DNA of 64,000 nucleotides from assembly GCA_036630325.1 (NCBI GenBank), contig CP142728.1:930001-994000 (forward strand). The letters are read 5' to 3'. Origin of the DNA: Vairimorpha necatrix (lineage: Eukaryota). The position numbers and the translations under genes were made by a program. Of this stretch, positions 2,471 through 40,827 are shown one piece after another. Numbering within the stretch: the stretch's first letter is position 1; each line of letters starts with the position of its first letter. The notes under the pieces are model-generated. The model was given only the letters and a program-made list of their open reading frames with translations. It made no database searches and was not told the DNA's origin.

Positions 2471-2478
2471 TCTGATAA

Positions 2479-3183: not shown

Positions 3184-3225
3184 AAAAATTAGGGGTTACA
3201 TATAAAATATTTAAAATTATCAACA
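3156..3225 (-). repeat. Putative 70-bp 5' LTR of element 1
   Basis: Minus strand TGTTGATAAT...ATTAACA, directly followed by the PBS. The start resembles the TGT(C/T)GATTAT LTR of element 2. The partner LTR is outside the window. Confidence 0.6.
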
Positions 3226-12574: not shown

Positions 12575-14911
12575 TCTTTTAATAATAAGATTTTTATCAC
12601 TGTTCATTGTGGTGTTTACTATCAACTTTCATGTATTTCCCGAGCTGTTCTATATTCAGCTCGGAAAGGAAAAACTCTTTATGGCTTACTGTAGGATTAT
12701 CAGATAGGCCGTTTTTTATAACTTTTATTGCCTTATCAACAGGCACATACTTTTTCCAATTTTGACGAAGATCGGAGATTATTTTCGTCAAAGCTGATCT
12801 GTTCCTAGAGATATAGTCGCCTACTTCGTTTTCGGCAATAATACTCTTACATTTTTTGAAGAGCTCCCTAGAGTTTCAGCAGCTTGAAAGCAGATTTCAT
12901 CTCTAATAAGAAAAATCCTGCCCTCTCCTTCAATATCTTTTACTAGAGGAATATTCTTTTCCTCTATGCTCTATATTTTGGGCTAGGTCTCTCTAATAAT
13001 GTGTTCCCCCCGGGGAACAATAAGCGACTACAATTTTGTATTTGCAGTCCTTGGGCCTCTTTCCGTTGATTGCTAGGTCTAGCAACTCTTCTCTGGATAG
13101 CTTATCTATTCAGTTCGGCTGTTTCTTCCTTGATGTGTGAGGAGGAGGTACCTTAGGCGAAGAAGTTTTCTTCATCTTGGATTTGCGTTCAGTCATAAAT
13201 TTCGACTTCGCACGAACTTTATAGATAACATATACCAATCATCTTCCAGTATTTTATTACAAGTTTTGAAACTTAACGGGGATTTCAACTGTTTCTTATC
13301 ACAGTTAAAATTCTTTTTTTACACCGCCTGGGAAGGGGGCAAGTTATTGGTTTCGACTGTTTTTGATGTTTTTGAGACATCAGATTTCTTTAAAACCTTT
13401 GGTTTCATATCACAATTTTTGAGAATGACTGTTCAGTCATTCTTCGTCTTTTCTGTTTTAAGAATATTTTTATTCATCAACTTTCTGTTTCCTTTACGGC
13501 ATCGGTTACCTTCCGTAAAAACACATTGAAGGTATTGAATGATGGGATCGTTTTACCAGTAACCTTTATTTGCCTTTATCTTGAGCTTTGGAAAATCCAC
13601 CAAACTTCTCCTTTTCCTTTTTTTGATCACTACTATCAGGTTTTATGGTGATTTGTTCCTCACATTCTTCTTTTGAGCAGCGAGAATTATGTCAATTCTC
13701 TGATCTAATCTTTCATTTGAAGCCTTTAGGGCATCAATTTGTGTGTCAAATTGGTTTCTAACTACAGAAATCTCAATTTCATGCTGTTTCTTCAAGTTTT
13801 TAAGCTTGAATCTCTTTTCACTGAGCTCTTCACAAAAGCATCTAAGTACTCCCGATGAATACTAGTCACTCCATGTAAATTCTTACAGTAGGAAGCAAAG
13901 CTAGCCACCAACCCGCTCTCCCACAGTACCTTTGGTTGGCATTTCTACCTTCTTCTCTCTTTATTCTGTTGAATAAAGTAATAGTTTGTGACCAGAATTT
14001 TATTAATTCTTGGTCTGTGTGAATAGCAGCTTGCAGAAGCTGGTAACTTCACAATCTGGTTTGTAACCTTCCAATACAAGTGAATTAACTCTTTATTATA
14101 CTCTAGAGGTCGATAAGTCGGTCATAATCTCGCAAGTTTCTCCCTCCTTTGTTTTACGTTTGGTTAACCAGCATTTTTCCGGAAATCTAAAACCGATCAG
14201 ATAATCTCGTGTGGAGAAAAGCCTTCTACTTTCTTCTCTTTTTCGATCTATGAGTCTTTGCACATTTTCCTTATCATCAAAATAAATGGTTTCTGTGTCC
14301 AAATGTTGCTTTATATGTATTCTCAATATTTTTTAACCATTCTATAATATTCATATTTCGTAGATCTTCAATAAAGTAAAGGTCCGCCGTGAACTTCAGT
14401 TCTAAGCCTTCTATTTTGGTTTTGAATGTAATGAACTTTCCCTTGAAATTTTCTGTCTGTTTCCTTCCGTCTTTTGACAGATGTACCTTGCTTAGGATTT
14501 CTCTGGTTGAATTCAACTTGACGTATCTTAGGCGGAGATATGTCTTAATGAGGTAAAAGGCATTTTCAGGAGTAAAGCTTTTATTATTTTTAGCGTTTGT
14601 ATTCACCTTCTTGCTCACCATGCCCTTGTGAGCTTTTTTTTGCTATTTATACTTTTACATGTTTGTTTGTAAACAAACAACAAGAAGTTTTAGAAAGACT
14701 ATTCTTGGAATGGAGTATATTGTATCATTACATGGATATGGATTATTTGTTAAGAATAGTAAACAAATAATGTGATGAGCTATGTTTTGATTGATAAGGT
14801 CATCACACTTGCCAACCAGCAGACGAAGGTTGGCAAGACTTAATGCTTTGCACCCAGTTATAATAAACATTGGTCCACCCTCCGCGACGTGGACGCTCTC
14901 TTGTGGCGGGC
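12575..14911 (-). mobile_element. LINE subfamily B copy: 5' ribozyme, 5' UTR and decayed ORF1
   Basis: Inverse homolog of ~59140-61760 (e.g. peptide SDLRQN.KKYVPVDKAIKVIKNGLSDNPTV). That copy continues into an APE domain. Many frameshifts. Confidence 0.8.
14842..14911 (-). ncRNA. HDV-like ribozyme (degenerate P2')
   Basis: Minus strand: P1 GCCCGCC/GGAGGGT (G1.U wobble, one mismatch), P2 AGAGA, P3 GCG-TCCACGT-CGC, P1.1 CC/GG, P4 ACCA...TGGGT, J4/2 GCAAA. Confidence 0.75.
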
Positions 14912-14954
14912 AGAGATTTGCAGCTAGTTAAAAAAAAACATTGGTCCCACCCTC
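14912..14954 (-). ncRNA. 3' half of a further HDV-like ribozyme copy
   Basis: Minus strand GAGGGT-GG-GACCAATGT(n)AACTAGCT-GCAAA-TCTCT, i.e. P1', P1.1, P4, J4/2, P2'. Confidence 0.65.
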
Positions 14955-15058
14955 AAAAAAATAAAATAAAAATAAAAATGTTTATATTTAAAAAGACAGA
15001 ATCAGCAAAAAGAAAAGCCACCAATCCCCCCCCCCAAAAAAAAAAAAAAAACTCCACC
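14955..15058 (-). repeat. LINE 3'-end fragment with T-rich tail (continues at 26250-26282 beyond the LTR insertion)
   Basis: Plus strand AAAAAGACAGAATCAGCAAAA...AAAAGCCACCAA...AACTCCACC matches the 3' ends at 26.3, 33.1 and 36.5 kb. Confidence 0.8.
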
Positions 15059-15122
15059 TGTCGATTATAAATAAGAAAATAAATAAACCCCTATACAATG
15101 ATAAATCCATATTCGAACAGCA
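15059..15122 (+). repeat. 5' LTR (64 bp) of element 2
   Basis: 61/64 identical to 26186-26249; preceded by CCACC. Confidence 0.92.
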
Positions 15123-16216
15123 TGGTGGTGAATTGTGGACAACCCAGTATCAACATAAAAAATCTATCACAAGAACTTTTGAGATACTAAATATTTAGAT
15201 GGTTCAAAAAATTGGACTCATTGGATAAAATTGAATATGTTCTGAGTAAAGCCAGTTACGAGATAATCGAATAGCACTCTAAATTTATGGAACAGACAAG
15301 AGGTTCCTCTCTTACATATGACAAGTGGAAAGAAGCATTATTTAATGAATTTAAGGAAGAAAAGATTGAAGTAGTAGATGTATACCGCCTTTTCCAGAAA
15401 AAAAGATCAGAATGCAAAGGAATTCATCGAAGAAGTCGAAAGTAGTAAAAATGGACTCCAAAGAAACTTTGAAAATTATCATGCTTAGAATAAGAAGAGA
15501 ATTTACGCATACGAAGGCCTACATAACGAGCTGTTGTTTTTTAAATGATATCGACCCTTGGCGAGTTTTAATGATGTAAAAAATTGATAAAAAATTGAAC
15601 GATAAGATAAGAATCGTTTTGGGAAAGAATGAAAAAGGAAATAAGAAAGTTGACGGCAATGGTCCTAAGGAGATTAGAAATGATGGATTAAAGCCTAAAT
15701 ACAATAGCAAAAAACTGCTTCAAATAAATGAAGTCTTAGAAGACTCAGAAGAGATTATTAATAAAGATAATTTGGTATATATCGAAACAAAAAATTTTGG
15801 TTGTTTTTGACGCAGGATCTAACTACTATTTTATTTCTGATGCAGTTAGATTAAAAGCTGGTTTAAGAAGAAGAAAAAACCATGCCAAATTAAAATTCAA
15901 AACTTGTCTTGGGGAAACCTTTGAGGTTAAGTACCATGTCATATGTGACGTTATTTACAAAAATGTGAAATTTCAGTTTAAATTCTTCTTTTTTCCAAAA
16001 GTACCCAGAGAAAAATTTTTGATTGGAAAAGAAGGAATTAAATTAATGATGAATTCTAAAAATCAGTATGAATGTGAAATAAATACAAAAAAGACGCTAT
16101 AGTTGTAGAGAAAGTATATAGCTTCTAAAAGAAATTTGAATCCGGAATGGAAGTTTCGATAAAAAATTTGATAAAAATGAATTATATAGGCCCATCAAAG
16201 TCTACATGGCTGAATA

Positions 16217-17919
16217 CAGTCCATTTCATTTTTATTGACACCTTGTTTCATTTTTATTGACACCTTGTTATATTTTTATTGACACCTTGTTTCATTTTTA
16301 TTGACACCTTGTTTCATTTTTATTGACACCTTGTTTCATTTTTATAGACACCTTGTTTCATTTTTATGGACACTTTGTTTCATTTTTATAGACACCTTGT
16401 TTCATTTTTATAGACACCTTGTTTCATTATTATAGACACCTTGTTCTAAAATTTATTTTACTTTTCTTAAAATTTTTAACCCTTAAAATATGAGAAACCT
16501 AAATGTCAGAGAAGAACTTGAGGAATATCGTACAGAAGAATCATTTGTCGAGATAGAAGATGAAACGCAGTCTTCTGCTGCAAGAAAAACTAGGAAAATG
16601 GTTACCAGGTTGATAATCGAAAGTTTTCTTTCGTTACTTGACACTGGTATGAAACTTATTGATATGGAAGTTGCTTTAAATCTCAGTAAGTCTAGCGTCA
16701 AACGCCTATATAAAAGATATATTACAGGAGAATTTACCAACCTTTCAACTTTTAAAACGGCAGGACAAAAAAAGAGTGAATCTTTAAAAGATATTTCTAT
16801 GGTTTCAAATATTATTGCATCGGAAATAGCCCCGAATCCTTGTCTAGGTCTTTATAATTTATCCGATAAATTGCAAAATGTAAATTGTACGGGACATTAC
16901 TCTAAGTCAACTGTTTGCAGACTTGTTAAAAAATTGGGGTATAGTTCTAAAACCCCGACCTTGATTCCACTAAATAGAAACAGTCCTCAGAACAAGCTGT
17001 TAAGGTCTCAATATGCGAGAGTAATAGATAACATATCAAATGATAATTTAATATTTCTCGACGAAACTGGTTTAAATCTGCACCTTAACAATACTTTTGG
17101 TTATTCTTTAAGAAATACTAAGTGTTGTGTAACGGTCCCGAATTCGAAAGGGACTAATGTTTCTTTAATGTGTGTTATAAGCGTTAATGGATTATATGCG
17201 CATAAAACCAAAGTCGGAAGTTTTAAATCTGCAGATTTTGTCGAATTCATTAACAATAATTTACCTATATGTGAGCAAGAGGAAAACAGAATTTTAATAT
17301 TGGATAACGCATCCATACACAGAACGGCCGAAGTAGCCGCCGCTCTTAGAAACAAAGGATACAGTCTAAAACTTCTCCCTCCATATTCTCCACAACTAAA
17401 CCCCATCGAGGAGTTTTTTAACAGTTTCAAGTCCCGAGTAAAACAGAGACCTAGACCAACAACCACTCCTTTGTTAATTGATTGTATTGAGGACGTGTTG
17501 AACACAGAAGTATTCGTCATGGGTGGTTACTTTTCTCATATGAGAGAATTTATCGAGAAAGCTCTTGTCAATGCGGATTTTTTCTGAATTAATATAATTA
17601 AAAATTTTAATTTAATATTTCTAAGATATTTTCATTGTTTGGCATGTAAATATTGATGTTTATATATATATCGTTACCTCTTCTTTACGATTCAACTATA
17701 TAAATCAATTATGAAAAAATCAAATATATTTTATAACAAGGTGTCTATAAAAATGAAACAAGGTGTCTATAAAAATGAAACAAGGTGTCTATAAAAATGA
17801 AACAAGGTGTCTATAAAAATGAAACAAGGTGTCTATAAAAATGAAACAAGGTGTCTATAAAAATGAAACAAGGTGTCTATAAAAATGAAACAAGGTGTCT
17901 ATAAAAATGAAAAGGACTG
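16217..17919 (+). mobile_element. Tc1/IS630-like DNA transposon with tandem-repeat TIRs
   Basis: TA|CAGTCC...GGACTG|TA. Excision restores RT peptide WLNNIRPVVKP. 22-bp unit repeated ~10x left and ~8x inverted right. Confidence 0.95.
16490..17587 (+). CDS. DD34E transposase (IS630/Tc1 superfamily), intact
   Basis: FLDETG ... ILDNASIH ... PPYSPQLNPIE, with 34 residues between the second D and the E. Confidence 0.93.
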   Translation: MRNLNVREELEEYRTEESFVEIEDETQSSAARKTRKMVTRLIIESFLSLLDTGMKLIDMEVALNLSKSSVKRLYKRYITGEFTNLSTFKTAGQKKSESLKDISMVSNIIASEIAPNPCLGLYNLSDKLQNVNCTGHYSKSTVCRLVKKLGYSSKTPTLIPLNRNSPQNKLLRSQYARVIDNISNDNLIFLDETGLNLHLNNTFGYSLRNTKCCVTVPNSKGTNVSLMCVISVNGLYAHKTKVGSFKSADFVEFINNNLPICEQEENRILILDNASIHRTAEVAAALRNKGYSLKLLPPYSPQLNPIEEFFNSFKSRVKQRPRPTTTPLLIDCIEDVLNTEVFVMGGYFSHMREFIEKALVNADFF

Positions 17920-19684
17920 TAACATTCGGCCAGTAGTAAAACCAGATAATAGTATAAGAATAACACTTAATTTGTTTGCACTAAACAAATTGGTAGAATT
18001 AGACAGATATAGCATTCCAAAAATTGAACATTTAGTATTCAATTTGAGAGACAAAAAATTCTTCACGAAATTGGATTTGAAAGATGGTTTTTTTAACATT
18101 CCGCTAGCGATAAAGGACCAACATAAAACTGCTTTTCGATTTAAGCATTTCTTGTATGATAAGAAAGTAATGCCGATGGGATTTGAGAATGCCCCGGCCA
18201 TATTCAGCGATATATGGATCACGTTCTAAAAGATGAAATAAGAAAGACGTGCATAGGTTACAAGATGACATCTTAATTTTCGGAGAAACACGTGAGGAAC
18301 ACGATAGAAAATTATGCAGAGTGATAAAAATATTAAAGGACAACAATCTCAATATCAACGAAAAGAAAACAGTTTCAAAAGTTAATAAAATAAAATTTTT
18401 GTGAACAATATCGAAAGAAATTATATATCGGCCGAAAATCGAGAATAGAAGCTATAAACGAATTTCAAAAACCAGAGAATAAGAAAAAATACAAAAATTT
18501 TTAGGAATGATAAATTACTCTAGAAAATTTATTCGAAATTGCGGAATGTTATGTGAGCCGCTATACAATCTATTAAAGTTAAAAAGTAGAATACATATGG
18601 ACAGAAAACCACCAAAACAGCTTCCAAAAGTTAAAAGAATTAATAAGTAAACAAATAGAGCTACACCAGCCGAATTACAACCTAGAATTTGTCTTGGAAA
18701 CAGATGCCTTCAACACAGGCCTAGGTGCTATATTGTCCCAGGTCGATGAGGGAGTTAAGGTCCCAATCGCATTTGCTTCAAGAAGTCTAAATCCTCTTTG
18801 AAAAAAATTATTCAATAAGTGAAAAAGAATGCCTAGCTATGCTATGGGGAATTGAACATTATAAATACTTTTCATTTGAGATTGGAATTTACGGCCATTA
18901 CAGATCATCTGACCTTGGAAGCACTTAATAAAGGAGAAGTTAAATCTTTAAGAATCCACAGATGGCTTGGTCGACTTAGTAACTTTATATTTAAAGTGAT
19001 TTATAGAAAAGGGGAAGAAATGTCACACGCGGATGCCCTAAGTAGGAGCTTTGAATAAAAAAAGCGTTAACGAAGTGACTGAAAACGAACTCTTTTTAGA
19101 ACAGGAAAAAATTAAAATAATATCCGAAAAGCATAAAGAAATGCTACATAGAAGTGCAAAAACAATTATTTATAGTTTAGAAAACGAATATAATTGGGTA
19201 GATATAAAAACACTAAAAAAAGGCGATAGATGGCTGTACTACATGTAAGATGTATAATCCGAAGAAAAACAAAAAAATTATATTCGTAACGGCGTATTCT
19301 CCAGGCGGAAAGGTGGGAATAGAAATTATAGGCCCTATAAACAAAAATTATATAATAACAAGATTAGATTATTACACCAGAAAGGGATTTGCCAGGTGTA
19401 TTAACGATAGGTCCGGACAAAAAGTAGCCCTATTTATAAAGGAAATAAATAAAATGATACCGATAAAACGCTTGTTCTGGACAGCTCAAAAGAAAATTTA
19501 AGCAACAGTGTTAAAATGTTGCAAATACAAATAATATTAAGTTACATTACACAACACCATTACATAATCAATCAAACGGGAGAGTGGAAAGGTTTAATAT
19601 AACTCTCCAAGAGATGGCGAATAAAAATTACGAAGACAAGTTTTTGAAAACAAAAGTGCATAAGCCATTTTAATATATAATAAC

Positions 19685-26185: not shown

Positions 26186-26249
26186 TGTTGATTATAAATA
26201 ATAAAATAAATAAACCCCTATTCAATGATAAATCCATATTCGAACAGCA
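26186..26249 (+). repeat. 3' LTR (64 bp) of element 2
   Basis: Preceded by a polypurine tract and followed by the CCACC TSD. Confidence 0.92.
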
Positions 26250-26282
26250 CCACCAATAGGAAAAAAATCAATAATTGTGTTT

Positions 26283-26388
26283 AAAAAAAATAAAAAAAAT
26301 GAAAATTTTTATTGTAAAAGGACAGAATCAGCAAAACGAAGAAAAGCCACCAAGCCACCAAAAATTCCACCAACCTGAAAAACATCAA
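26283..26388 (-). repeat. Short LINE 3'-end fragment with T-rich tail
   Basis: ~105-bp copy of the terminal part of the 3' UTR (GACAGAATCAGCAAAACGAAGAAAAGCCACCAAGCCACC). Confidence 0.8.
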
Positions 26389-29300
26389 TAAAAAAATAAA
26401 AATAATAATAAAAATAAAAATGTATATTGTAAAAAAAGACATCCAGAATCAAAACAAACGTTCCTAAATCATCATAATAAGTTCCATATAATAGGAGGCC
26501 AAATCCATTCAAAGAAAAATACATTCAAATAAAGGAAATAAATAGATGGGATACAGAATGATATGAAAAATCAGCAAAAACGAAGAAAAGCCCCCCAAAA
26601 CTCCACTGCTAAGGAAAAATCATCAATAATCGCGCTTTCGCGCCAGCACACCTTTACGGCCTCGCTTGTAGTAGAAAAACTTGTTCTATGGGACAACAAA
26701 TTCTAGTCAACGATGACTAGATCCACCAGAGGTGGTGTGTGTGAAAACGACATCGTCTGGCTCAATACACCATTTAAGAACACAACTCAGTTCAGCGGAA
26801 CAAATAAAGCATCAGTATCATGCTTGAACCCTCCCAGGTCAATTATATAAATATATAAATTTTGTCGTTAACAAATTAACTAAATTTTTCTTCCATTTCT
26901 GGGTATTTACTTTTTTAAGAAATCTTCATTAATTATTCATGTGATTGTTGAGCTCCTTGAGTTTGTTATTGAATAGTATCGCTCTGGAGACAACCATCTT
27001 GTCTAGGAACTCAATGATCAAGCAGAGTTCTTTTATATGTTCCGGATTATTTTTCAACCCAATCTTATTACCAAGAAGTTGCTTTGTTTTTTCTTGGTTA
27101 TTTGTTTGTGAACATGTTAGTAGAGGCAGTTTATTTCGCCGCGATGATCTTATTTCGTTTAATGACGAGCACTCAAACAGGAAGTGTTCTAAATTTTCTT
27201 GTGGTCCATCACACAAAAAGCACATCATTCTATAACTCACTGGAATTCTCTTTGCATTGGCTATTGAGGAGGACCACCTTACTAGATTACATCTTAATCT
27301 AGTGTATGTTCTTATCTTTCTATTGTTGACTTTGTTTATGACATATTTCAACTGTGAGCTTCTTATGTCATAAATATCTGCTATTGATGCAGCTACAGAA
27401 GTATTTATCGTTCTCCTTCTTCTTAGTACATCAGTTGTTTTTGTAGAAACAGATACATTGTTCTTGTTTCATAGTCGTTACCGACGAATCTTTTTAACCA
27501 CCTTTGCGTTCTTGTAGACCAGGTGGTTTTTCTTTCTCTCGGATTGATTGAAATTATATCTGAGATTATGGTTTTATTGTGTTTCCACTTGTTGTATGCT
27601 CTAAAGCTACTTAAAGCTGCTTGTATATGAATTCGTTCTATACTGAACTCATCCAATAATCTATCTAGGGGAACTAATACCTGTTGGAATATCATCCCCA
27701 ATGATTTCCTTAAGATCCTATTGATCTTACCTGCTCTTGTACTAGACATTCCCCAAAGTTCATTGCCATACATTAGTGTGGGAACTAGTACACATTTTGT
27801 CAAGATCGCCTTAAATAATATGTTGATACCATTATTTAATAACTTTGGCATCAGGGCGTCTAGGGGTTTCGAGCCACGCATTGCCGCGTCTCTGACCAAA
27901 TGTTCTTCAAGTGTGTTTCCTTTATTAAAACACATAGATATCTATATTCTGTGACTTCTTCAATCACGCCAAAGTCTGTATTGATGGAATATAAACTTCT
28001 AATTTCTTGAATATTAGAGTTAACATTCCATTCTAATACTCCACTCTTCTTGCAGTTAATTTTCATTCTGTTGTCAACTGCACATTTCGAAATTCTTTTG
28101 ATCTTATTTTCTAGATCATCAATATTGTTTCCAAAGACAACGATATCATCGGCGAACATCAGTCCTGAAACTCTTGTATTTGATCTTGGGATCAAGACAC
28201 CATCTATGCCGTCAAAAATATCATTGATAAATATATTGAACAGCATTATAGAACAAGGGCATCCTTGTCTCACTCCTTTTCTGTAGCCATAGCCACTTGA
28301 ATTTTCTCCGGCGATTTTTATTGGCATGGTGGTGTTTTTATAGATATTCTTTATTGTATTTATCAAATACCTGGGGATATCTAGATTTTCTAGCTTACTA
28401 AATAATAAGTCATGACTTACATCATCATAAGCTTTCTCAAAGTCTATGAAACACATCACTGTGTTCACGCCTCTGAATTCTCTTCTTCTTACTACTTCAA
28501 GTAGGAGAGTAAATTGGTTCATACATTCTTCACCTTCTCTAAATCCTGCTTGGTATTTAGAGATGATGTTATTTTCTTTAACAAATTGGGTCAATCTGTC
28601 GTTAATTATCTTGAGATAGATCTTGCTAATTGTGTTTATTTTGGAGTTTCCCGTATAATTATTCAGATCTGTCTCTTCTCCTTTTTTGTGGAGACAAATC
28701 ATGTTTGCCATACTCCAGTATTTTGGTAGGGTTTCTCCACTAATGTATTTATTAAATTCATATAGCATGAATTTAAAGAATTTTTCTTCTACTGCTCTAG
28801 TCAGTAAGTGTTTGTATAGCTCGGTTGGAATCTCATCAGGACCGGCAGCTTTGTTGTTTCCGCATTTCTTCAGTGCGGATAGAAATTCTTCATCTGTTAT
28901 CTCTGGGGGAAGATCAAAAAAATCTACTTTATCATAGGCATTGACATCTATATCATTCTCTGACGATAATTCGGCGTAAAATTTATTCGCTATTTCTAGC
29001 TTCTTTGCTCGGCAAGTCTGAAGAAGCTTATTGTGGTCAATTAGAGTTACTTGATCCAAACGAATGGAAACACTTCTATTTTTCAGCCATTGCCAGAATT
29101 CTCGGGATCTATTACTTTTAAAGAGCTTTATTCCTTTTAAAACCCAAAGTTTCGATCTATCTTTGCGAATAAATTTCTTCGTATCCTCTACTCTCTTTTT
29201 GATATCTACGAGCCGGGCTAAATTGATTTCATTGTGATTTTTCATAACCGCTTTTGCTGCTAAACGCTTTTCTTTGAAGACTTTTAAGTATCTCCATCTC

Positions 29301-32279
29301 ATTGTAAGTCCAGTGTGGACCCTTTTCTTTTTGTAGATCTTTAAAGATGTACAAGCTTTTTTAATAATCTCGGGAAGATTATTCATACTTAATTGTTGAT
29401 TACTCAACTTCATTTTAAGCCTTTTAATCACTTTCGGATTTTCCAGCATCTTTTTATCATAGACTAGTTGATCAGAGATCTTATCAACAGTTAGTGAGAT
29501 ATATTTTTTGAGCACTAAGTGATCACTTAGTACCCAAGACTTTGATATAATGATCTTCTCATTATCGTATTCTTTCAGCCTAAAGATGGTATCAATTTTT
29601 CTCTTAGATCTTTTCCCATCTTTGAGAATCCTTGTACCATCTTTGCTGTTATACTTCATCGTAACTGGTAAACCAATTACTACTAGTTTTTTCTTGAGAG
29701 AAGAACTCTGCATATTCATATCTCCCATTACTATAATTTCACTATAATAGTTTCTGAATTTCTCTTTTTCTAGAAGAGACAAAAGTCTGGCAAGCACCTC
29801 CCTTTTGAGATCCCTGTCTTGTGGTATGTAGACATTTAAGATTAAGTATTTAATCCACTTGCCTTCTGATCTAAACTCAACCACTGTTTGCAGAATGTTT
29901 GAGTCAGTTCCCTTTTTGCTACATCTAATAGCTCCAGTGTTTCTCACCAGAGTTATTAACCCTGGTTTATTTTTTCCACTGCTTGGTGTTTCAACAGCAG
30001 TGTATTTTTCTAGTCTAAGGGATCTATTAGATTGTCTCCAAGTTTCCTGTAGACACATAATTTCTGGTTTCTCCTTCTTAAGAAGAAACTCAAGTTCTTC
30101 TCTCTTGTGGGAGAGATGGTTGATGTTGAGACTTAAGAGTTTTATCTTCTCTCTAATCTCTTTTATTGTTTTATTAGTTTTTTCTAATCCTTTTCTGTTA
30201 TCATTTAAAACTTTATAGCCTTCAGCTTTAATAATCTTAATCAATAAATTTTTATGTGTTTTTTCAACTACTATCTTTGTTAATGACGCATTTCTACGTC
30301 TAAACTTTCGTATTGTAAAAATGGCAGAATCTAATTCAGACTCTCTATTTACAAGACATTTTCTTAGGTCTTTACAATCGACGGGAATTCTTTGCATATT
30401 AACTATACAGAAATTTTCTTGTAGTTTTCTAGTCCATAGATTTTTCCGCGTATAAAATGAAGTTATGCACTTCATCCTTCTACGGCTTCTGAAAGCTCCA
30501 AAAGGTTTATTTAATCCTGTAGGATTAGTGATTTTTTTATTTAATAAAGATAATAAATATTGAATTTTGAAAGAGAAATATCTCTTGTAAAACTTAGACT
30601 TTAAAAGAATATCAACTTTATTCATTTTTAGAGTCCTTCATTTTCCGGGCAGGTTCACCCATCATACTATGTAGGTAGATAAAATTTTTATATGCTAAAT
30701 TCTCACTACCTAAATTCTTCTTTATGTACTTACAAGCTTCCGTAAGTGGTATAAAATTTTTATTAATTCTAGAAACCCATAGAAGCTCCTCCAGAATTAA
30801 ATCCTTCTTTGATTTCAGAAAGTCCACCATAAATGTCTCGTCATTACAGACATATGCCTCTGGGATTTCGTCCAAGAGATTTTTTACTGCTCTTTCGCAG
30901 GTACCTTCTCTGAGCATCAAGAGAATAGACTCTTCATCTCTAAACTGCTTTAAGAGTGGGATGTCTTTTCTCTCAATAGTGAGTAGAGCAGCCCAAGCGT
31001 CTCTAGCTTGGTGCTCCTTCCATACTCCCAGACCTCCTACCAATACAAATTTAAATTTGCATTTGGATATAGGACATCCACCTCTAATAATTTTAATGAG
31101 AGCTTCTTTAGAAAGCCCTTTTGCCCTGTTCTTCTGAGGTTGAACTGGGTTTATTTTCTTGCCAGATTTCTCTTGGGATTCCTTCTTAGCCATTTTGGGG
31201 CTTGAATTTTTCTTTTCTTTGATGGAATTTTTTTTCTCGCCTAGTGACATTGTTAGGCTTTCCTTTTTGTGAAATTTAATACACTTCCCTAGGTTTTCTA
31301 CTTTAATAGAAGTAAATCTATTAAGTTCTTTTAATTTAGTATGTTTAATACTAGAGTTTTTATTAAGACCAAATTGCATCTTTGGCTTAAAGGTATGTCT
31401 GACAGACTTCCATCCATCTTTATTGATTTGGTATAGCTTAACTCCATTCTTTGGAGCTTTGCTTCTACCAGATATTATTGCTGAGATAATTTTAAGATGA
31501 TTATCTACTGCTTTCTTATTTATGTCAGCTACATCGAGCTTAACATTATTGGTATTTACAACTTCATTAGTTATATTTTTACTTTCTTTAGAGACTTCAA
31601 TTGTTTCTAAACACATTCTTTTGCCATATTCTGACAATCTATCTTCTTCTTCTACTTTAGAGGCAGATTCGAGATTTTTGACATTAATTAAAAAATCTTC
31701 ATTTATGATTTCTAAATTAGAAACATCATTCTTTCCAGTAGCTAACTGAAGGGTTTCGCTACTGGTGACATTTGGAACATTGGAGTTAATATCCTTTTGT
31801 TCTACATGTTCTTTTGAGTGATTCTCTATCATCATCTCAATTTTGTTCTTTGATGCTTCAGTAATTTGATCACTGTCATCCATCAAATTATTTTTAATCA
31901 AATTTTTTAATTTCATTTTTTGTTTTTCTAGCTTATCGTGGGAGAGCTCCAGATATGTCTGCTGAATCGTTACTAATTCAGTAGTACTAGATATAAACTT
32001 TTTAAGATCATTAAGATCTTTTCTACTTTTATTTTTTGACATGTCCAAAAAATCATTTTTACAAATTCTTTCTGAAAGAATTTTAATTTTTTTAAGAAAA
32101 TATTTCATCTCTCCATCTTTTTTGAAAGTAACGCTAGAGTTACCATCATCAGCATAAACATGCTTAATATGTTCTGTTAAATACATTTCTGTATCTAACT
32201 TGTTGTTTTGACCATCATAGTGGTCACTTGTGGCACTACTGTGCTCGCTCCTGCTTTTTTCCTCTTTACCCTTCATCAT
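26389..32279 (-). mobile_element. APE-RT non-LTR retrotransposon (LINE subfamily A, copy 1), near full length
   Basis: ORF1, then ORF2 with APE (LQETW, MGDMN, SDH), RT (GVRQGCP, FADD) and C-terminal CFLC...EHFLFEC. Structured 3' UTR. Confidence 0.93.
26929..30625 (-). pseudogene. LINE ORF2 (APE endonuclease-RT-Zn knuckle), split by a frameshift and a stop
   Basis: ORFs 27860-30625, 27423-27935 and 26929-27351 are collinear with the A2 copy. Confidence 0.9.
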
Positions 32280-33071
32280 GTTTAGACTTAAGAGTTTTAT
32301 GTTCTCTTTGGTCTTTTTATTTACTTTACTAGATTTCTCTAGTTCTTTTCTATTATCATTTAAAACTTTAAAGCCTTTAGCTTTAACTGTCTTAATCAAT
32401 AAATTTGCGTATAGTTTTTCAACTATTATTTTTGTAAAAAACGTGTCTCTTCGTCTATACTTTCTTGCTGTAATGATGGAATTCTCCAAAAGAGAGTTCT
32501 TCTTACATAAGTCTTTGAGGAGATCTTTCACTCCATAAGGAATTCTTTGTATCTTGACAATACAATATTGTTCTTGTACTTTCTTCCACCACATATTCTT
32601 TCTAATAGAAAAATATTTGAGACTATTCAGTCTCCTTGGTGTTTTAAAAGTATTTTTTAATTTATTATAACCAATTGGATTATGAGTTTTTTTATTTAAA
32701 GATTTAAAAATATCACTTTTGTTATAGGAAAATAATTTCCTATAAAAACAGAACTTTAACAAGGATACTTTATTCATTATAAAGTCCTTAGATTCTCGGG
32801 CAGGCTCACCCATCATATTTTCTAAATAAATGAAATATCCATGGTTTGGCTTTTCTTTATTTAATTCTTTAGTTATGTACCTACATGCTTTAACAAGTGG
32901 TACAAAGTTTTTATGCGTTCGAGAGAATCTTTGTAGTTCTCCTAGAACAGTTGTTTTTGTTAAAGACAAAAATTCGATGAAGAAATTAACTTCCTCACAG
33001 ATATTAGAACCCACGAACTTTTCTTTAATTTTGCCTAGTACCTTAGGGCACACGTTTTCTCTAATCATCAA
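30618..33071 (-). CDS. Chimeric ORF: paralogous ORF1-end/ORF2-start fragment fused in frame to LINE ORF1 (probable native start ~32279)
   Basis: The first ~265 aa repeat the end of this ORF (FIYL..MMGEPAR) and the start of ORF2 (MNKV..., IKLLSLN). The rest is Lys-rich ORF1-like sequence. Confidence 0.7.
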   Translation of the reverse strand: MMIRENVCPKVLGKIKEKFVGSNICEEVNFFIEFLSLTKTTVLGELQRFSRTHKNFVPLVKACRYITKELNKEKPNHGYFIYLENMMGEPARESKDFIMNKVSLLKFCFYRKLFSYNKSDIFKSLNKKTHNPIGYNKLKNTFKTPRRLNSLKYFSIRKNMWWKKVQEQYCIVKIQRIPYGVKDLLKDLCKKNSLLENSIITARKYRRRDTFFTKIIVEKLYANLLIKTVKAKGFKVLNDNRKELEKSSKVNKKTKENIKLLSLNMMKGKEEKSRSEHSSATSDHYDGQNNKLDTEMYLTEHIKHVYADDGNSSVTFKKDGEMKYFLKKIKILSERICKNDFLDMSKNKSRKDLNDLKKFISSTTELVTIQQTYLELSHDKLEKQKMKLKNLIKNNLMDDSDQITEASKNKIEMMIENHSKEHVEQKDINSNVPNVTSSETLQLATGKNDVSNLEIINEDFLINVKNLESASKVEEEDRLSEYGKRMCLETIEVSKESKNITNEVVNTNNVKLDVADINKKAVDNHLKIISAIISGRSKAPKNGVKLYQINKDGWKSVRHTFKPKMQFGLNKNSSIKHTKLKELNRFTSIKVENLGKCIKFHKKESLTMSLGEKKNSIKEKKNSSPKMAKKESQEKSGKKINPVQPQKNRAKGLSKEALIKIIRGGCPISKCKFKFVLVGGLGVWKEHQARDAWAALLTIERKDIPLLKQFRDEESILLMLREGTCERAVKNLLDEIPEAYVCNDETFMVDFLKSKKDLILEELLWVSRINKNFIPLTEACKYIKKNLGSENLAYKNFIYLHSMMGEPARKMKDSKNE

Positions 33072-33113
33072 AAGTACTACTTCCGAATCTTTAAATTGTT
33101 TTATAAGTGGTAT

Positions 33114-36100
33114 AAAAAATAAAATTGTTTATTGTAAAAAAGACAGAATCAGCAAAACGAAGAAAAGCCTCCAAGCCACCAAAAACTCCACTAATAAAGA
33201 AAAAATCATCAATAATTGCGTTTACACGCCAGCATACCTTAACGGCCTCGCTTGTAGGAGAAAAGTTTGTTCCCATAGGACACATCCTTAGTCATAATAT
33301 GACTAGAGACCCACTTTCATGGGTCTAATGAAAAACGAAAACGCCTGGCTCAATGCACCATTTAAGAACACGACTCAGTTCAGCGGAACAATACAGCATC
33401 AGTATCATGCCCGACCTCTCCCAGGTCAAATATAATTAAATATAAGTCTTTTTGTTAATAAATCAACGTCTCTTTCTTCTATTTCTAGATCTTCATTTTT
33501 TTAATTATTCATATTAATTACCTTGTTTCGTTATCTCCTTAAGTTTCTTTTCAAATATAATTCTTCTAGAGACAACCATTCTATCTAAGAACTCTATAGT
33601 CCAACAAAGTTCTTTTATCTTATCTGGGTTGTTTCTTAATCCGATTTTATTACCAAGAAGTAATTTGGTTTTTTCTTGGTTATTTGTTTTTGAACAAGTC
33701 AGTAGAGGCAGTTTATTTTCAAAAGATGATCTAATGTCAGTTAAACAGACGCACTCCAGCAGAAAGTGTTCTAAATTTTCTTGTGGTCCATCACACAAAA
33801 AGCATTTATTTCTATAACTCATAGATATTCTTTTTGAATTGGTTATTGCTGAGGACCACTTTACTAGATTACATCTCAATCTAGTATATGTTCTAATTTT
33901 TCTATTGTTTATTTTGTTCATGACATATTTTATTTGTGAATTTCTTATGTCATATTGATTTGCTATTGATGCAGCTAAGGAAGTATTTAGAGTTCTCGAC
34001 TTCTTAGTACATCAATTATTTTTGTAGTGATAAATCTACTATCACTTGATTCATATTCGTTGCCAACAAATCGTTTTAACCATCTTTGTGTTCTTGAACA
34101 CCAGGTAGTTTTTCTTTCTTTCGGATAAATTGAGATTATATTCGATATGATTGTCTTATTGTGTTTCCACTTGTTGTATGCTCTAAATCTACTTAAAGCT
34201 GCTTGTATATGAATTCGTTCGATACTGAACTCGTCCATTACTCTATCTAGTGGAACTAATACTCTTTTGAATATCATTCTGATAGATTTTCTTAAGATCC
34301 TGTTAATCTTACCTGCTCTTGTACTTGACATTCCCCACAGTTCACTACCATACATTAGTGTGGGTACTAGTACACATTTGATTAAGATCGCCTTGAAGTA
34401 AAGGTTGATGCTATTATTCATCAACTTGGGCATCAAGGCGTCTAAGGCTTTCTTGCCACGCATTGTTGCGTCTTTGACCAAATGTTCTTCTAGCGTGTTT
34501 CTTTTAATTAAGACACCTAGATATCTGTATTCAGTGACTTCCTCAATCACACCAAAGTCTGTACTGAGAGAATACAAACTTCGGAATTCTTGTATGTTAG
34601 AATGAGCAGCCCATTCTAATACTCCGCTTTTTGAGCAGTTAATCTTCATTCTGTTATTAACTGCCCAATTAGAAATTCTATTGATCTTATTATTAAGATC
34701 ATAAATGTTGTTTCCGAAGACAACAATATCATCTGCGAACATCAGTCCCGGAGCTCTCGTATTTGACCTTGGGATCAAAACTCCTTCTATGCCATTAAAA
34801 ATATCATTGATGAATATATTGAATAGCATTGGAGAACAAGGGCACCCTTGTCTCACTCCTTTTCTGTAGCTATAACCACTTGACGTGTCACCACCAATTT
34901 TCACACGCATAGTGGTATATTTATAAATATCCTTTATTGTATTGATTAAATACAATGGGATATTAAGTTTTGTAAGCTTCTCAAATAATAAGTCATGACT
35001 TACATTATCATAAGCTTTTTCAAAGTCAATGAAACACATTATTGTGTTCAGGCCTCTGAATTCTCTTCTTCTCACTATTTCTAGTAGAGATGTAATCTGA
35101 TTCATACACTCTTCACCTGCTCGGAATCCTGCTTGGTATCTAGAGAGTATATCTTGTTCTTCGACAAATTGAGTTAACCTGTCATTTATTATCTTGAGAT
35201 AGATCTTACTAATTGTGTTAATTAAGGAGATTCCCCTATAATTATTCAGATCTGTCTCATCTCCTTTTTTGTGAAGGCAAATCATGTTTGCCATGCTCCA
35301 ATATTCTGGAGGACTATTTCCACAAATATATTTATTAAATTCATGTAGCACGAATTTAAAGAATTTATCTTTTACTGCTCTAGTCAGTAAGTGTTTGTAT
35401 AGCTCGGTTGGAATCTCATCAGGACCGGCAGCTTTGTTATTTCCACATTTCTTCAGTGCGGATAGAAATTCTTCATCTGTTATCTCTGGGGGAAGATCAA
35501 CAAGATCTACTTTATCATAGACATTGACATCTATATCATTCTCTGACGCCAAATCAGCGTAAAATTTATTCGCTATTTCTAGCTTCTTTGCTCGACAAGT
35601 CTGAAGTATCTTATTGTGGTCAATTAGAGCCACTTGATCCAAACGAATGGAAACACTTCTATTTTTCAGCCATTGCCAGAATTCTCGGGATCTGTTACTT
35701 TTAAAGAGCTTTATTCCTCTTAAAGCCCAAAGTTTCGATCTATCTTTGCGAATCAACTTTTTAGTTTCGTCTACTCTCTTTTTGAGATATTCGAATCTAA
35801 TTGAGTTGATTTCGTTGTAATTTTTCATAACAGCTCTTGCTGCTAGACGTTCTTCTTTGAAGACTTTTAAATATCTCCATCTCATTGTAAGTCCAGTATG
35901 GACTTTTTTCTTTCTGTAAATCTTTAACGATGTACAAACTTTTTGAATAATCTCAGGAAGATTATTCATGTTTAATTGTTGATTACACAACTTCTTTTTA
36001 AGCTTTTTAATCACTTTTGGATTTTCCAGCATTTTCTTATCATAAACTAGTTGATCTGAGATCTTATCAACGGCAAGTTTAATTTTTCTTTTGAGCACTA

Positions 36101-36491
36101 AGTGATCACTTAATACCCAAGACTTGGATATAATGATCTTCTCATTATCATTACTTTTTAGTCGAAAGATGGTATCAGTTTTCCTCTTAGATCTTTTACC
36201 ATCTTTGAGGATCCTTGTACCATCGTTGCTGTTATATTTTATTGTAACTGGCAAACCAACTACATTTAGTTTTTTCTTGAGACTAGAACTCTGCATATTC
36301 ATATCTCCCATCACTATGATCTCACTATAGTTATTTCTGAAATTCTCTTTTTCTAAAAGAGAAAGTAATCTGGCCAAGGTCTCCCTCTTGAGATCCTTGT
36401 CTTGTGGTATGTAGACATTTAAGACTAAATACTTAATCCATTTGCCTGCGGAACTAAACTCAACTACGGTTTGCAGGATGTTTGAGTCTGT
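33114..36491 (-). mobile_element. LINE subfamily A copy 2, 5'-truncated within the APE domain
   Basis: ORF 33987-36593 matches A1 ORF2 from DSNILQTVVEF onward (YRGISL, QGCPCSP, FADD). C-terminus 33514-33921 is frameshifted. 3' UTR module at 33130-33428. Confidence 0.93.
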
Positions 36492-36995
36492 AAAAAAAAA
36501 AAAATAAAAATGTTTATTGTAAAAAGACAGAATCAGCAAAACGAAGAAAAGCCACCAAGCCACCAAAAACTCCACCAACCAGAAAATCATCAATAATTGC
36601 GTTTACACGCCAGCATACCTTAACGGCCTCGCTTGTAGGAGAAAAGTTTGTTCCCATAGGATACATCCTTAGTCATAATATGACTAGAGACCCACTTTCA
36701 TGGGTCTGATGAAAAACGAAAACGCCTGGTTCAATACATCATTTAAGAACACGACTCAGTTCAGCGGAACAATACAGCTTCAGTATCATGCCCAACCTCT
36801 CCCAGGTTTAAAATATGAAGAATTACTCGAAAGTTAACGGTGTTCTTCTCACCAGCAATGGGTCTCCCACCCCTAGAGTATAGCTGACCCTACTTACCAA
36901 CCAGCAGCCGAAGGTTGGTATGACTTAGAGATCTGCACCTAGTTAAAAAACATCGGTCCCACTCTCCGCGACGTGGACGCTTTCTTGTGGAGGGT
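36492..36995 (-). mobile_element. Non-autonomous short internally deleted element: ribozyme 5' end joined to LINE 3' module
   Basis: 36895-36995 matches the 5' end at 14810-14911. 36505-36808 is near-identical to the A2 3' UTR. No ORF between them. Confidence 0.85.
36927..36995 (-). ncRNA. HDV/CPEB3-like self-cleaving ribozyme
   Basis: Minus strand ACCCTCC-ACA-AGAAA-GCG-TCCACGT-CGC-GGAGAGT-GG-GACCGATGTTTTTTAACTAGGT-GCAGA-TCTCT. P1, P2, P3, P1.1, P4 and the J4/2 C are all present, with one mismatch each in P1 and P2. Confidence 0.8.
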
Positions 36996-37062
36996 AGTAC
37001 CAAATAAAATAAAAAAAAATACGCTCTCTTGTGAAGGCCAACACCTACTATACATACAAAAA

Positions 37063-37287
37063 AAGCAGTAACCTCAAAATGTCGGCATACACCTTCATTC
37101 TTACAGTTCTGCTTAAAAGAGTAGTATTCTCCTAAATGTATCTTTGAGCTACGCTTCAGGCTTAAGAGGCTTTCAGCCTTAATCGAAACGACGTAGCTAA
37201 GCAACATAACTTAATAGTTAATCGCACTACCAGTGGTCATCACTTAGAGTTCCTCTCGTACTATCAAAGTTCACTCAAAAATACTTA

Positions 37288-37329
<42 letters not shown>

Positions 37330-37764
37330 TCTCACGTTCCTCATTACCGGGTGAACAATCCAACACTTCGTAACATATACACTACGATGATCAGAAGAGA
37401 CGACATCGAAGAATCAAAAAGCAGAGTCGCTATGATCGCTTGCCTGCTACAAGCCAGTTATCCCTGTGGTAACTTTTCAATCACCCAATACATAATGAAT
37501 GTAATTGGGATCGCTAGGCCAAGGTTTCCCTACTAAATACAGTCATATGCATAAAGTAAAGCAGATTTATTCCCTTATAATAAACTGATGGTTACCATCC
37601 ATCATTCATCTACCTTAGGACAGCTGTGTTACTTTTTAACAGCTGTACCGCCCCAGCCAAACTCCCCATATATTCTAATAAATAAATATTCAAACATACT
37701 AGTGGTTTCACAATACTTCTCCCACCTCTCTACAATATACCGAATATTTATTAAAACATACTAA

Positions 37765-37796
<32 letters not shown>

Positions 37797-37895
37797 GATA
37801 AATAACAAGCCCGTTCCCTTGTCTCGTGGTTTCACAAAATTGTAAGTAGGGACAGTAGGAATCTCGTTGCTCCATTCATGCGCGTCACCAATTAA

Positions 37896-37948
<53 letters not shown>

Positions 37949-39544
37949 ATTCGCTTACACAACTTTAACAATAAATGCACTGGGCAGAATTCACTTCTTG
38001 TAAATACAAAAAGCTATGTTTTTAATAAACAGTCAGATTCCTTACATAGTAAAAGTTCTAGCATGCTAGAGCCAATCTTTATCCCAAAGTTACAGATCTA
38101 ATTTGCCGAATTCCCTTACTTACTTTAATTTAAAATATTTGTTATGATACAAAGACACCTGATGCGGTATAGGTACGGTTAAAATTATTTTATTTTTATC
38201 AAGTATATATAACTAACTATTTCTTATCATGACAATCCCATAGTTAAAATTAAATTTAATTCATTTATCTTAAATTTATTGAAATATACTGTCATTATCA
38301 AGTTACCTTATAATAATTTAATAAAGAATTATTAATCTTTTTTGTTTTTATAAATAACACCGATTCACTTCAATAATAATTGAAAACCCTAGTCTATATC
38401 TATACAAATATATTGTTACTGCCTCCAAGATCGGCTCATTTGTTTCTTCTATATATACTCACATATATACTTCAATACAAACAAATTGCACAGCTACCTA
38501 AATATTTATTAGAAACATCTCATAAAAGTAGTAATCTTCTTCCATTTTATACAATAATACATTCGGTAGGTACGTTGTAACACGTTTCTTAGCGGATTTC
38601 TACTTCCATAACAACCGCCCTACTGTCTCAATGTATTCATCATATTTATGGTATAATATCTACTATTTAGAATATTTAATGTTTCATAAGGTTCATCCCT
38701 TTTTGCACATCATTCTTACAATCATGTGCCCACTAGTTATACAATAGATTCATTATATAAATTTAATTTATATAATTCCATAGAATTAAAGATTTCTCAT
38801 AGTTAAAAAACTATAACAGTGTCCTACATCTATGTCCTATACAATAATAACTGCTGTCCTGAGAGACATTTCGCTGTGAACCAGCTACCACACAGTTCGA
38901 TTGGTCTTTCGCCACTATACACATCTTAAATCATCGATTTGCACGTCAGAATGATTATGGTCTTCCAATAAACTGTTGCTTATCTTCAACCAGAACATGT
39001 ATAGTTCACTGTGTTTCGGGTCTTATAATTATAACTTATCAAGTTAATAAAGATTAAAAATTTACTTTTATCTTGCTATAATTATAATCTCCTTGGTCCG
39101 TGTTTCAAGACGGGTCCTTAAAAATAAGGCTAAACTCCACACATTTTCACAAGTTCCTTCGCAGTACTTATTTTCTATCGGTATACCATTATATTTAACC
39201 TTAGATATTTCATTCTACCTTTATTCAAACTGCACTACCAAGCAGCTCTACTCAAGTACATTATTATTCTATTCTATTAATAACGAATATAATATTCTCT
39301 ATAAATATAATTAATAGAATAAACCATTTACAACTCCAATTAAGGATTACAATGGAGGGTTATTTCTTGTTCACTCGCTGCTACTAAAGAAATCCTAGTT
39401 AGTTTCTTTTCCTCCTTTTAATGATATGCTTAAGTTCAAAGGGTTATCAATACATTATAAATATATTAATTAGGTAAATAATATACTTTCGTATTCTATT
39501 ACGACCTTCATCGTTATGGTATCCTATTGATCCCATGTGTGGGT
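37063..39544 (-). rRNA. Large subunit rRNA (microsporidian, 5.8S-like region fused at 5' end); ends approximate
   Basis: Minus strand conserved motifs TTGAACTTAAGCATATC, GACCCGTCTTGAAACACGGACCAAGGAG, TTAAGGTAGCCAAATGCC, CAGGGATAACTGGCTTGT and the sarcin-ricin loop AGTACGAGAGGAAC. Confidence 0.96.
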
Positions 39545-39581
39545 AAATTTAATAATTAAAATTAATTTAAATTTAACTTAT
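39545..39581 (-). other. Very short AT-rich ITS
   Basis: ~37 bp, almost all A/T, between the SSU end (GGATCATAA) and the LSU start. Confidence 0.8.
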
Positions 39582-40827
39582 TATGATCCTGCTAATGGTT
39601 CTCCAACAGCAACCATGTTACGACTTATATCAGATCTAATACATATTGTTCAAGTAGTTTTCACTAATTTCACAACACATATCATCTTAGATAGCGACGG
39701 GCGGTGTGTACAAAGAACAGGGACACATTCAATTCTACTTATTTAATAAAATTTACTAGCAATTCCAAGTTCAAATATCTCTTACAAAATATTATCCCAT
39801 AAAGATTATATATCTATTGTATTGCGCGTGCAGCCCAAAATGTCTGAGGGCATAACGGACCTGTTTTAATCCTTTCCTTCCTACACTGATTGTGTCTGTC
39901 TATTAATAAAAGGGTCTCACGTCTTGTTGAAATTAATCAAAACTTCACAGCATCCATTGAAAACGGCCATGCACCACTATTATCATTCTCAGATTGAAAA
40001 TCTTCTCTGAATAATAAAATATTGGTAAGTTGCCTCGCGTTGAGTCAAATTAAGCCGCACAATCCACTCCTTGTGGTATTCTTCCGTCAATTTCTTTAAT
40101 TTTCAATCTTGCGATCATACTATCCCCAGAGCCAAAAAACTCAAATTTCTATCATCTAATACAATTAATATCATATCACATCGTCGGCATAGTTTACTGC
40201 TGGAACTACAATGGTATCTAATCATCTTCGCTCCTCCAGCTTACGTCCTTGTTCAAAAAATACATACAAGTGTACAGCTTTCGCTTCTGTTCGTCCAGTC
40301 AGGGTCGTCACATTTCATCTCTCTCCCAACTATACAGTACACCTCATATTGCTTCTTAAATATAAACTACGGACTTTTTAACTGCATCAATCATCATACA
40401 CACTCTTGGAACAAGTATTACCGCGGCTGCTGGCACTTGATTTGCCCTCCAATTAATCACCTCATATACTTTTACAATATGAAACAATAGAATATTACTT
40501 CCCATAACTGCCTCAGATAAAATCCATAGGTCAAGTTTCGCCCCTGCTGCAATCCTTAGACTTAGTAGCCGTCTCTCAGGCTCCTTCTCCGGAATATTAC
40601 AAAGTAATACCGTTACCCGTCATTGCCTTGTTAAGCCATTACCTTAACAACTAGCTGATAGGTCTCACTCTTACTGTATATGTCTTATGCTACACTTTAA
40701 CGCAGTTATACTAATTTAATACATTAAATAAAGTGAGTATTACTGAGCAGTCCATTTTTCCATATCAAAAACATGCATGGGTTAATCTTAGGGAATAGCG
40801 TCTACGTCAGGCAGAATCAACCTGGTG
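39582..40827 (-). rRNA. Small subunit rRNA (reduced, Vairimorpha/Nosema type)
   Basis: Starts CACCAGGTTGATTCTGCCTGACG. Contains GTGCCAGCAGCCGCGGTAA and TGTACACACCGCCCGTC. ~1.25 kb. Confidence 0.98.

Follow-up and report, generated by a model that had tools for sequence, protein, structure and literature searches.

A mosaic 3′-terminal module of an L1-like retrotransposon in Vairimorpha necatrix, a candidate signal for recognition by the element's own protein

Long interspersed nuclear elements (LINEs) without poly(A) generally rely on their own 3′ end. As described in the excerpts of PMC4176376 used here, the protein of their open reading frame (ORF) 2, ORF2p, binds a stem-loop of the 3′ tail and starts reverse transcription. 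The stringent tails of the ZfL2 element of zebrafish and the UnaL2 element of eel, both of the L2 clade, are described in the same excerpts. A lineage with stringent 3′-end recognition also exists within the L1 clade, in monocots and a green alga (excerpts of PMC3472496), and the R2 protein of Bombyx mori selectively binds a multi-hairpin 3′ untranslated region (UTR) as the template of target-primed reverse transcription (excerpts of PMC11194090). The present analysis concerns a 64,000-nt stretch of the genome of Vairimorpha necatrix, a microsporidian that parasitizes insects (CP142728.1, 930,001–994,000 of the forward strand), hereafter referred to as the window; coordinates are window positions. 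An L1-like LINE in the window carries a 3′-terminal module, which a preliminary description made from the letters alone had presented as a conserved structured RNA of ~270 nt with compensatory changes, present in three minus-strand copies (hereafter A, B and C).

The module is the 3′-terminal ~325 nt of the 3′ UTR of an L1-like non-long terminal repeat retrotransposon. It lies directly 3′ of an ORF2 with APE and reverse transcriptase (RT) domains, on the same strand and at the 3′ end of the repeat unit. ORF2 stops at 33514 in a truncated copy of the element, E1, whose 3′ UTR spans 33513–33108 and contains module copy B, and at 26929 in a full-length copy, E2, whose 3′ UTR contains module copy A. 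Pfam matches directly upstream of the modules and on the same strand (RVT_1, 7.3e-39 and 8.5e-32; Exo_endo_phos, 2e-5; zf-RVT) bear out the earlier assignment to a LINE 3′ UTR. The three minus-strand copies were confirmed by nhmmer and model search, which set their limits at 26536–26857, 33101–33444 and 36481–36825. The extent of ~270 nt proposed for the module was too short, the unit continuing through a pyrimidine-rich tail to ~33108. A covariance-model search of the window without filters revealed no further copy: of 29 matches at E ≤ 10, only the three copies fell below 1e-5, the next match having an E of 0.078.

E1 and E2 represent two subfamilies, 84.4% identical across 3.3 kb. E1 begins within the endonuclease domain, and its ORF2 contains one frameshift. 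In E2, ORF1 runs from an ATG at 33068 to 30618, and ORF2 (APE, RT and zf-RVT) is spread over three frames at 30637–26929. The solved structure nearest to ORF2 is that of human L1 ORF2p (E 1.6e-28), with R2 proteins ranking behind. The largest ORF2 piece matches, at 100% identity, a protein annotated as 'reverse transcriptase [Vairimorpha necatrix]'. Outside V. necatrix, the closest protein relatives are annotated as 'endonuclease-reverse transcriptase' in Vairimorpha ceranae (52% identity over 93% of ORF2); a search of viral contigs with the V. ceranae protein found nothing.

From 5′ to 3′ the module consists of hairpin H1, a core block of ~60 nt, a fast-evolving stretch with hairpins H4 and H5, a block with hairpins H7 and H8, and the pyrimidine-rich tail. 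A nearly invariant core had been noticed earlier and is indeed there: a 28-nt sequence is identical in B and C, A differs from it at one Y position, and the corresponding pattern is matched three times with 0 mismatches, compared to 0 matches expected from 100 shuffles. Identity between E1 and E2 amounts to 84.7% in ORF2, 68% in the UTR that precedes the module and 71–75% in the module itself. Between A and B, the core block (33392–33332) is 90% and the H7/H8 block (33262–33203) 87% identical, while the spacer between them, which carries H4 to H6, is only 47–60% identical. Two conserved blocks separated by a fast-evolving spacer make the module a mosaic rather than a uniformly conserved element. 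The earlier view of a conserved module therefore holds for the two blocks, but as a whole the module is barely above the rest of the UTR and below ORF2. Conservation no higher than in the rest of the UTR, which the preliminary description had named as an outcome that would refute it, is thus half borne out.

The tail contains three GGTGG words, an AATAAA-like word and a terminal variable T-rich run. Poly(A) is found in none of the five tails (0/5). All five finish in T-rich runs of varying length, so that the end is a short variable repeat, as expected of a stringent signal. The tail of copy A is apparently interrupted by ~85 nt (26452–26535) absent from the other tails; the end piece at 26395–26451 resembles the other tails again, which places the end of this tail near 26395. 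Several copies without an ORF keep this 3′ part of the element: the solo module C and the tail-only copies D and F.

On balance, and with slightly better than even confidence, we take the module to be a cis-acting recognition signal of the stringent type, bound by the element's own ORF2p. Such a signal fits the conserved 3′ end, the lack of poly(A), the retained hairpins (see below) and the copies reduced to the module. ORF2p would bind the conserved blocks and the hairpins of the LINE RNA, and reverse transcription would then start at the nicked target, where the U-rich RNA end would anneal to the A-rich nicked strand. Priming by a U-rich end would direct new copies into T-rich runs, for example the tails of older copies. 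It would thus explain insertion behind older T-rich tails and match the head-to-tail stack in which the copies are found.

The element shares with ZfL2 and UnaL2 a conserved 3′ end independent of poly(A), stem-loops, a short variable terminal repeat, and ORF-less copies sharing the tail (excerpts of PMC4176376). In those L2-clade elements, however, the signal is a single stem-loop of a few dozen nt, whereas the V. necatrix unit has ~325 nt and several small hairpins; its protein is nearest to L1. With the stringent L1 lineage, as excerpted from PMC3472496, the element shares an L1-like protein and a conserved, structured 3′ end without poly(A) that is common to non-autonomous copies. The hosts of that lineage belong to a different kingdom, and the likeness is one of features. 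A multi-hairpin 3′ UTR and a location beside or within rRNA genes recall R2 (excerpts of PMC11194090). Yet R2 uses a restriction-like endonuclease and one fixed 28S site, while the endonuclease here is APE-type and the copies lie behind the elements' own T-rich tails and ~50 nt past the end of the large subunit (LSU) rRNA gene, so that the element does not belong to R2 or the R elements. The module had been called larger than the signal typical of stringent LINEs; this is true of stringent tails, but R2 3′ UTRs are similar in size.

Structural evidence comes from small hairpins. The alternative hairpin sequences that had been quoted earlier are present in all four pairs. H1 reads GACCT/AGGTC in B and AACCT/AGGTT in C (G-C to A-U); in copy A the stem is mismatched or slipped in register. 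H4 is AGACCCAT-GAAA-GTGGGTCT in B and C versus CCACC-TCT-GGTGG in A, where a different 5-bp hairpin is found after 8–9 changes in 20 nt. H5 is TAGTCAT-ATT-ATGACTA in B and C versus CTAGTCA-TCGT-TGACTAG in A: six stem pairs are invariant, an inner pair is added in B/C and an outer pair in A, and the loops differ. H8 is GCGT-GTAA-ACGC in B and C versus GCGC-GAAA-GCGC in A. One of its pairs is changed on both sides (U-A to C-G), and a GNRA loop, GUAA in B/C and GAAA in A, is retained on the LINE sense strand. H5 is kept in A despite 4–5 changes and H8 despite 3.

As a control, local hairpins were predicted from copy B along the whole of E1 and their fate was read in E2. In an alignment-free test, the folding energy of the homologous segment was compared with 1000 random placements of an equal number of substitutions drawn from the observed spectrum. 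All 46 ORF2 control hairpins fell short of H5 and H8 in retention; for H4 the figure is 45 or 43, according to how its differences were counted. Retention at p < 0.01 was seen for 2/9 module hairpins and 0/46 controls (Fisher exact 0.024; smallest control p 0.012), and at p < 0.05 for 3/9 and 7/46, which is not significant. A first hairpin simulation, in which a Fisher combination of five p-values by hand gave ~3e-4, was set aside: the hairpins had been chosen post hoc, and a similar null yields low p-values in coding sequence too. A covariance model was also built from the central 135 nt of B and C with six local hairpins, and copy A was then aligned to it. In this model-fitted alignment pairing is kept in 98% of 100 cells, with changes on both sides in 7 pairs, compared to 0–1 when partners are slid by 1–3 columns; the observed number of double changes was attained in 1 of 500 shuffles. 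We conclude that three short hairpins, H4, H5 and H8, are probably under selection, a conclusion drawn from one split between two lineages.

A single large fold had been proposed as well, with a possible long-range helix between TTGTTC and GAACAA that would enclose the core. RNAalifold, applied to the three copies, returned 67 pairs, 4 of them changed on both sides. Its long-range helices fall where the sequence varies little or not at all. Each of the three copies contains TTGTTC and GAACAA without any change, hence there is no covariation to judge the helix by, and GAACAA finds a local partner as well in copy A.

Several results weigh against a structured recognition signal. The covariation term of RNAalifold is only −0.2 kcal/mol, and the module as a whole does not reach a better minimum free energy (MFE) than dinucleotide shuffles do (z: B, −0.54; A, +0.12; opposite strand, −0.82); together with the invariance of the long-range helix this leaves the single ~270-nt structure without support. 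On a plain alignment, changed pairs that still pair number 12/39 in the module and 70/194 in ORF2, which is no difference. The median retention p is 0.24 for the 9 module hairpins and 0.23 for the 46 of ORF2 (Mann-Whitney p 0.51), with no sign of retention in 6 of the 9 in the module. The null model errs somewhat to the anti-conservative side, since the ORF2 hairpins alone combine to p 1.6e-4. The count of 7 doubly changed pairs comes from an alignment fitted to the structure, and 3 of the 7 lie in H6 and are unconvincing, A folding differently there. With only two independent lineages (A versus B plus C), each compensatory count is a single event. A variant at 33398, common in public sequencing runs and in copy C, breaks a predicted pair of H2. 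Moreover, the module overall is less conserved than ORF2, and binding by ORF2p is our inference. The structural evidence for the three small hairpins is modest and under-powered, and a single large fold has none. In favour of the compensatory changes claimed earlier are the retention of H4, H5 and H8 and the 7 double changes of the fitted alignment; against them are the plain alignment, which shows no excess over coding sequence, and the presence of only two lineages.

Much of this is what would be expected if the module had no function at the RNA level, the copies being alike by shared descent and the hairpins arising by chance or as DNA quasi-palindromes perfected by template switching in replication. 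Column-wise compensation equal to the coding control, overall hairpin retention the same as in ORF2, MFE z-scores non-significant on both strands and a module less conserved than ORF2 all agree with it, as do near-perfect palindromic hairpins, which leave the strands indistinguishable. Shared descent does not easily account, however, for two blocks at ~90% beside adjoining UTR at 47–68%, for H5 and H8 exceeding every control hairpin, or for a GNRA loop of H8 retained solely on the sense strand. According to the excerpts of PMC4176376, LINEs without poly(A) also require some 3′ signal. We consider an origin by descent alone unlikely, though it keeps an appreciable share of probability, and continue to favour the recognition signal.

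Ten public runs were listed, of which 7 contain part of the stretch and none is RNA; contigs of four were compared over 32950–33950. They add little variation within the module: the five variants with the best support sit at places where A, B and C differ as well, and four of the five are unpaired. In one of the runs, X1, contig depth is far higher over the module than over ORF2. This was not used, since depths cannot rank parts and the runs were picked with the module itself.

The ORF-less copy C has a sharp 5′ edge, its similarity to the LINE UTR ending ~7–12 nt before the first hairpin. A likeness of its upstream flank to the LINE UTR had been suspected and was rejected by a shuffle test: the 150 nt upstream of C show no similarity to the corresponding flanks of A and B, the scores being equalled in 385 and 475 out of 500 shuffles. 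The edge recurs in other data, because contigs of two runs bridge it. In X2, one contig (85 + 57 letters) joins the module-tail end (33114) to the module start (33434) with nine letters between, and in X6, two contigs pass from the module start into letters containing GTTAACTTTCGAG. The latter sequence occurs once in the window (36826–36838), 11 nt upstream of copy C and behind the LSU gene, and the sharp edge may trace to a single old insertion beside the rRNA unit.

Such an edge, seen in C, in the tail-to-head joint of X2 and in X6, would also be expected if the module were, additionally or mainly, a separate retroposon similar to short interspersed nuclear elements (SINEs): an RNA of ~325 nt from ~33434 to the U-rich tail, copied in trans by the LINE protein. 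The fact that 4/6 module or tail pieces in the window are without an ORF is in line with this. On the other hand, no head similar to tRNA, 5S or 7SL RNA was found (ARAGORN, 0 genes in the window; Rfam, none at E up to 10), so that the module does not qualify as a SINE. RNA polymerase III terminates at T runs, and the internal runs of 5–6 T would be expected to stop it. The shared edge may equally derive from one old insertion beside the rRNA unit, later multiplied, and extreme 5′ truncation is normal among LINEs. We therefore regard a SINE-like unit as quite unlikely.

The edge is also the sole point in favour of a self-cleaving ribozyme, or another non-coding RNA of the host, that would set the 5′ limit of the module. 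The preliminary description had allowed for an unrecognised functional or self-cleaving RNA and had suggested an Rfam search; no family matched any module copy at E up to 10, including hammerhead, HDV-like, twister, pistol and hatchet, and no canonical hammerhead core was seen by eye. Within 26400–37000, Rfam gave 5 weak matches (E ≤ 10), all outside the module copies, and the only gathering-level matches in the window are rRNAs. The probability that we attach to a ribozyme or host RNA is very slight indeed.

Exact patterns of the H7 motif, the core and the tail were scanned in metagenome, viral and genome contigs. The core pattern had 0 matches in all three sets, and the H7 motif had 0 matches in genome contigs. 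The H7 motif was found in two contigs of one metagenome (L001 and L002), which was taken as chance, since only 31–39 model positions are common with the module; neither contig has an Rfam match or a long ORF. Around the motif, the two contigs are conserved over at least ~100 nt of G+C-rich sequence (L001, 371–431, minus strand; L002, 874–929, plus strand), probably unrelated to the module. Matches of the tail pattern in two viral contigs were likewise taken as chance, being alike over ~40 nt only (E 0.016).

Table 1. Features of the LINE copies, the 3′-terminal module and the neighbouring rRNA genes (window positions; p, retention in the alignment-free test)
Feature	Positions	Strand	Evidence or remark
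E1, 5′-truncated LINE copy	33108..36488	-	Pfam RVT_1 7.3e-39, zf-RVT; 84.4% identity to 26569-29905
E2, full-length LINE copy	26395..33107	-	Pfam Exo_endo_phos, RVT_1, zf-RVT; ORF list
Module copy A, second subfamily	26536..26845	-	nhmmer E 1.6e-98
Module copy B, last ~325 nt of E1 3′ UTR	33108..33434	-	sequence, nhmmer
Module copy C, ORF-less, 3′ UTR only	36489..36815	-	nhmmer E 9e-112; 95% identical to B
Tail-only copy D, directly behind E2 tail	26286..26391	-	nhmmer E 6e-16; 93% identical to C tail
38-nt tail fragment	26245-26282	-	beyond copy D
Tail-only copy F	14958..15062	-	nhmmer E 8e-8
H1, 5 bp, loop GGGAG	33413..33427	-	p 0.27
28-nt core	33359..33386	-	within ~90% conserved block 33332-33392
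H4, 8 bp and GAAA loop in B and C	33307..33326	-	p 0.011; 0.03 by minimal edit distance
H5	33289..33305	-	p 0.003; 0.003-0.009 by minimal edit distance
H7, internal loop	33231..33252	-	all 7 pairs invariant, so no covariation signal; in 87% block
H8, 4 bp, GNRA loop	33218..33229	-	p 0.005; 0.002 by minimal edit distance
Pyrimidine-rich conserved tail	33108..33202	-	alignment of 5 tails
LSU rRNA gene	36865..39466	-	Rfam RF02543, 1345 bits, model 1-3401
Small subunit (SSU) rRNA gene, microsporidian type	39581..40827	-	Rfam RF02542, 1059 bits

The window has a G+C content of ~30% and is rich in transposons (Ty3/gypsy-like, IS1595/Merlin-like and Tc1/mariner-like). Repeats make up ~50% of the V. 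necatrix genome, which has 18–20 rRNA units per haplotype, neither clustered nor subtelomeric (excerpts of PMC10759460). On the minus strand, the region 26245–40827 contains, in this order, an rRNA unit, the solo module C, the truncated E1, the full-length E2 and two tail pieces; the 3′ end of the LSU gene (36865) lies ~50 nt upstream of C. That the module is present in triplicate follows from the head-to-tail stacking of element copies behind the rRNA unit. Every LINE piece in the stack begins directly after the T-rich tail of the previous one.

This arrangement brings to mind a further function. In HeT-A of Drosophila, the 3′ module of the upstream copy acts as the promoter of the downstream copy. 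The same could hold here in head-to-tail arrays: copies are stacked in this manner, and in E2 the ORF1 start codon follows the tail of B after only ~39 nt (33068–33107). With a 5′ UTR of this length, any internal 5′ promoter of E2 would have to lie within the coding sequence. Microsporidia commonly have short 5′ UTRs, however, and only one full-length copy was seen, so that we hold a promoter function of the module to be very improbable.

A broader version of the recognition signal may be entertained, at very low credence, in which any RNA ending with the module would be copied. The module would then be a portable retrotransposition 'ticket', possibly also driving transcription of the next copy. 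A read-through transcript of the rRNA unit, with the solo module ~50 nt past its 3′ end, could be copied whole.

Tails of the LINE and the 3′ end of the LSU gene repeatedly turn up next to each other. Behind tail piece F lie two fragments of the LSU 3′ end that overlap; these fragments and their LSU counterpart are at 14807–14957 and 36892–36994. The LSU motif CACAAGAGAGCGTCCAC is found at 14889–14905 and again, with one mismatch, at 36973–36989, and three contigs of run X1 connect the module (at 33202) to the same motif CACAAGAGAGCGTCCAC. A 9-mer, CTGGTTGGT, is common to the LSU 3′ end (36896–36904) and the start of the module tail of copy C (36574–36582), and copy D carries the related GGTTGGTGG; microhomology or chance is possible. 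In the LSU 3′ region (36977–37033, minus strand), a T-rich stretch of ~31 nt is flanked by the near-identical 13-mers CACAAGAGAGCGT and CACAAGAAAGCGT, and resembles a small insertion with duplication or an internal rRNA repeat.

Two other repeats in the window were observed. A more diverged copy of the same LINE, in two pieces 73–83% identical, lies on the plus strand at 62307–63270, heading to the window end, with its 3′ UTR falling past base 64000. A Tc1/mariner-type transposase ORF (DDE_3, E 2.6e-27) is located at 16215–17921 between inverted arrays of a 22-nt tandem repeat (16224–16445 and 17735–17912).

The module is an ordinary part of a transposon, with modest structural evidence. It can serve as a marker in annotation of the V. 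necatrix genome, whose repeat-rich half contains many fragments without an ORF, and the link between LINE tails and rRNA units merits a genome-wide look. If the module were a portable ticket, this would be a possible route by which rRNA units became scattered across the chromosomes of V. necatrix and its relatives. If recognition by ORF2p is confirmed, the module would be the first described 3′-end recognition signal of a microsporidian LINE, although supplements of genome or transposon papers may list the family. It would add an L1-like element independent of poly(A) to the few known cases, and would bear on whether the L1 clade ancestrally had stringent recognition, as argued in the excerpts of PMC3472496.

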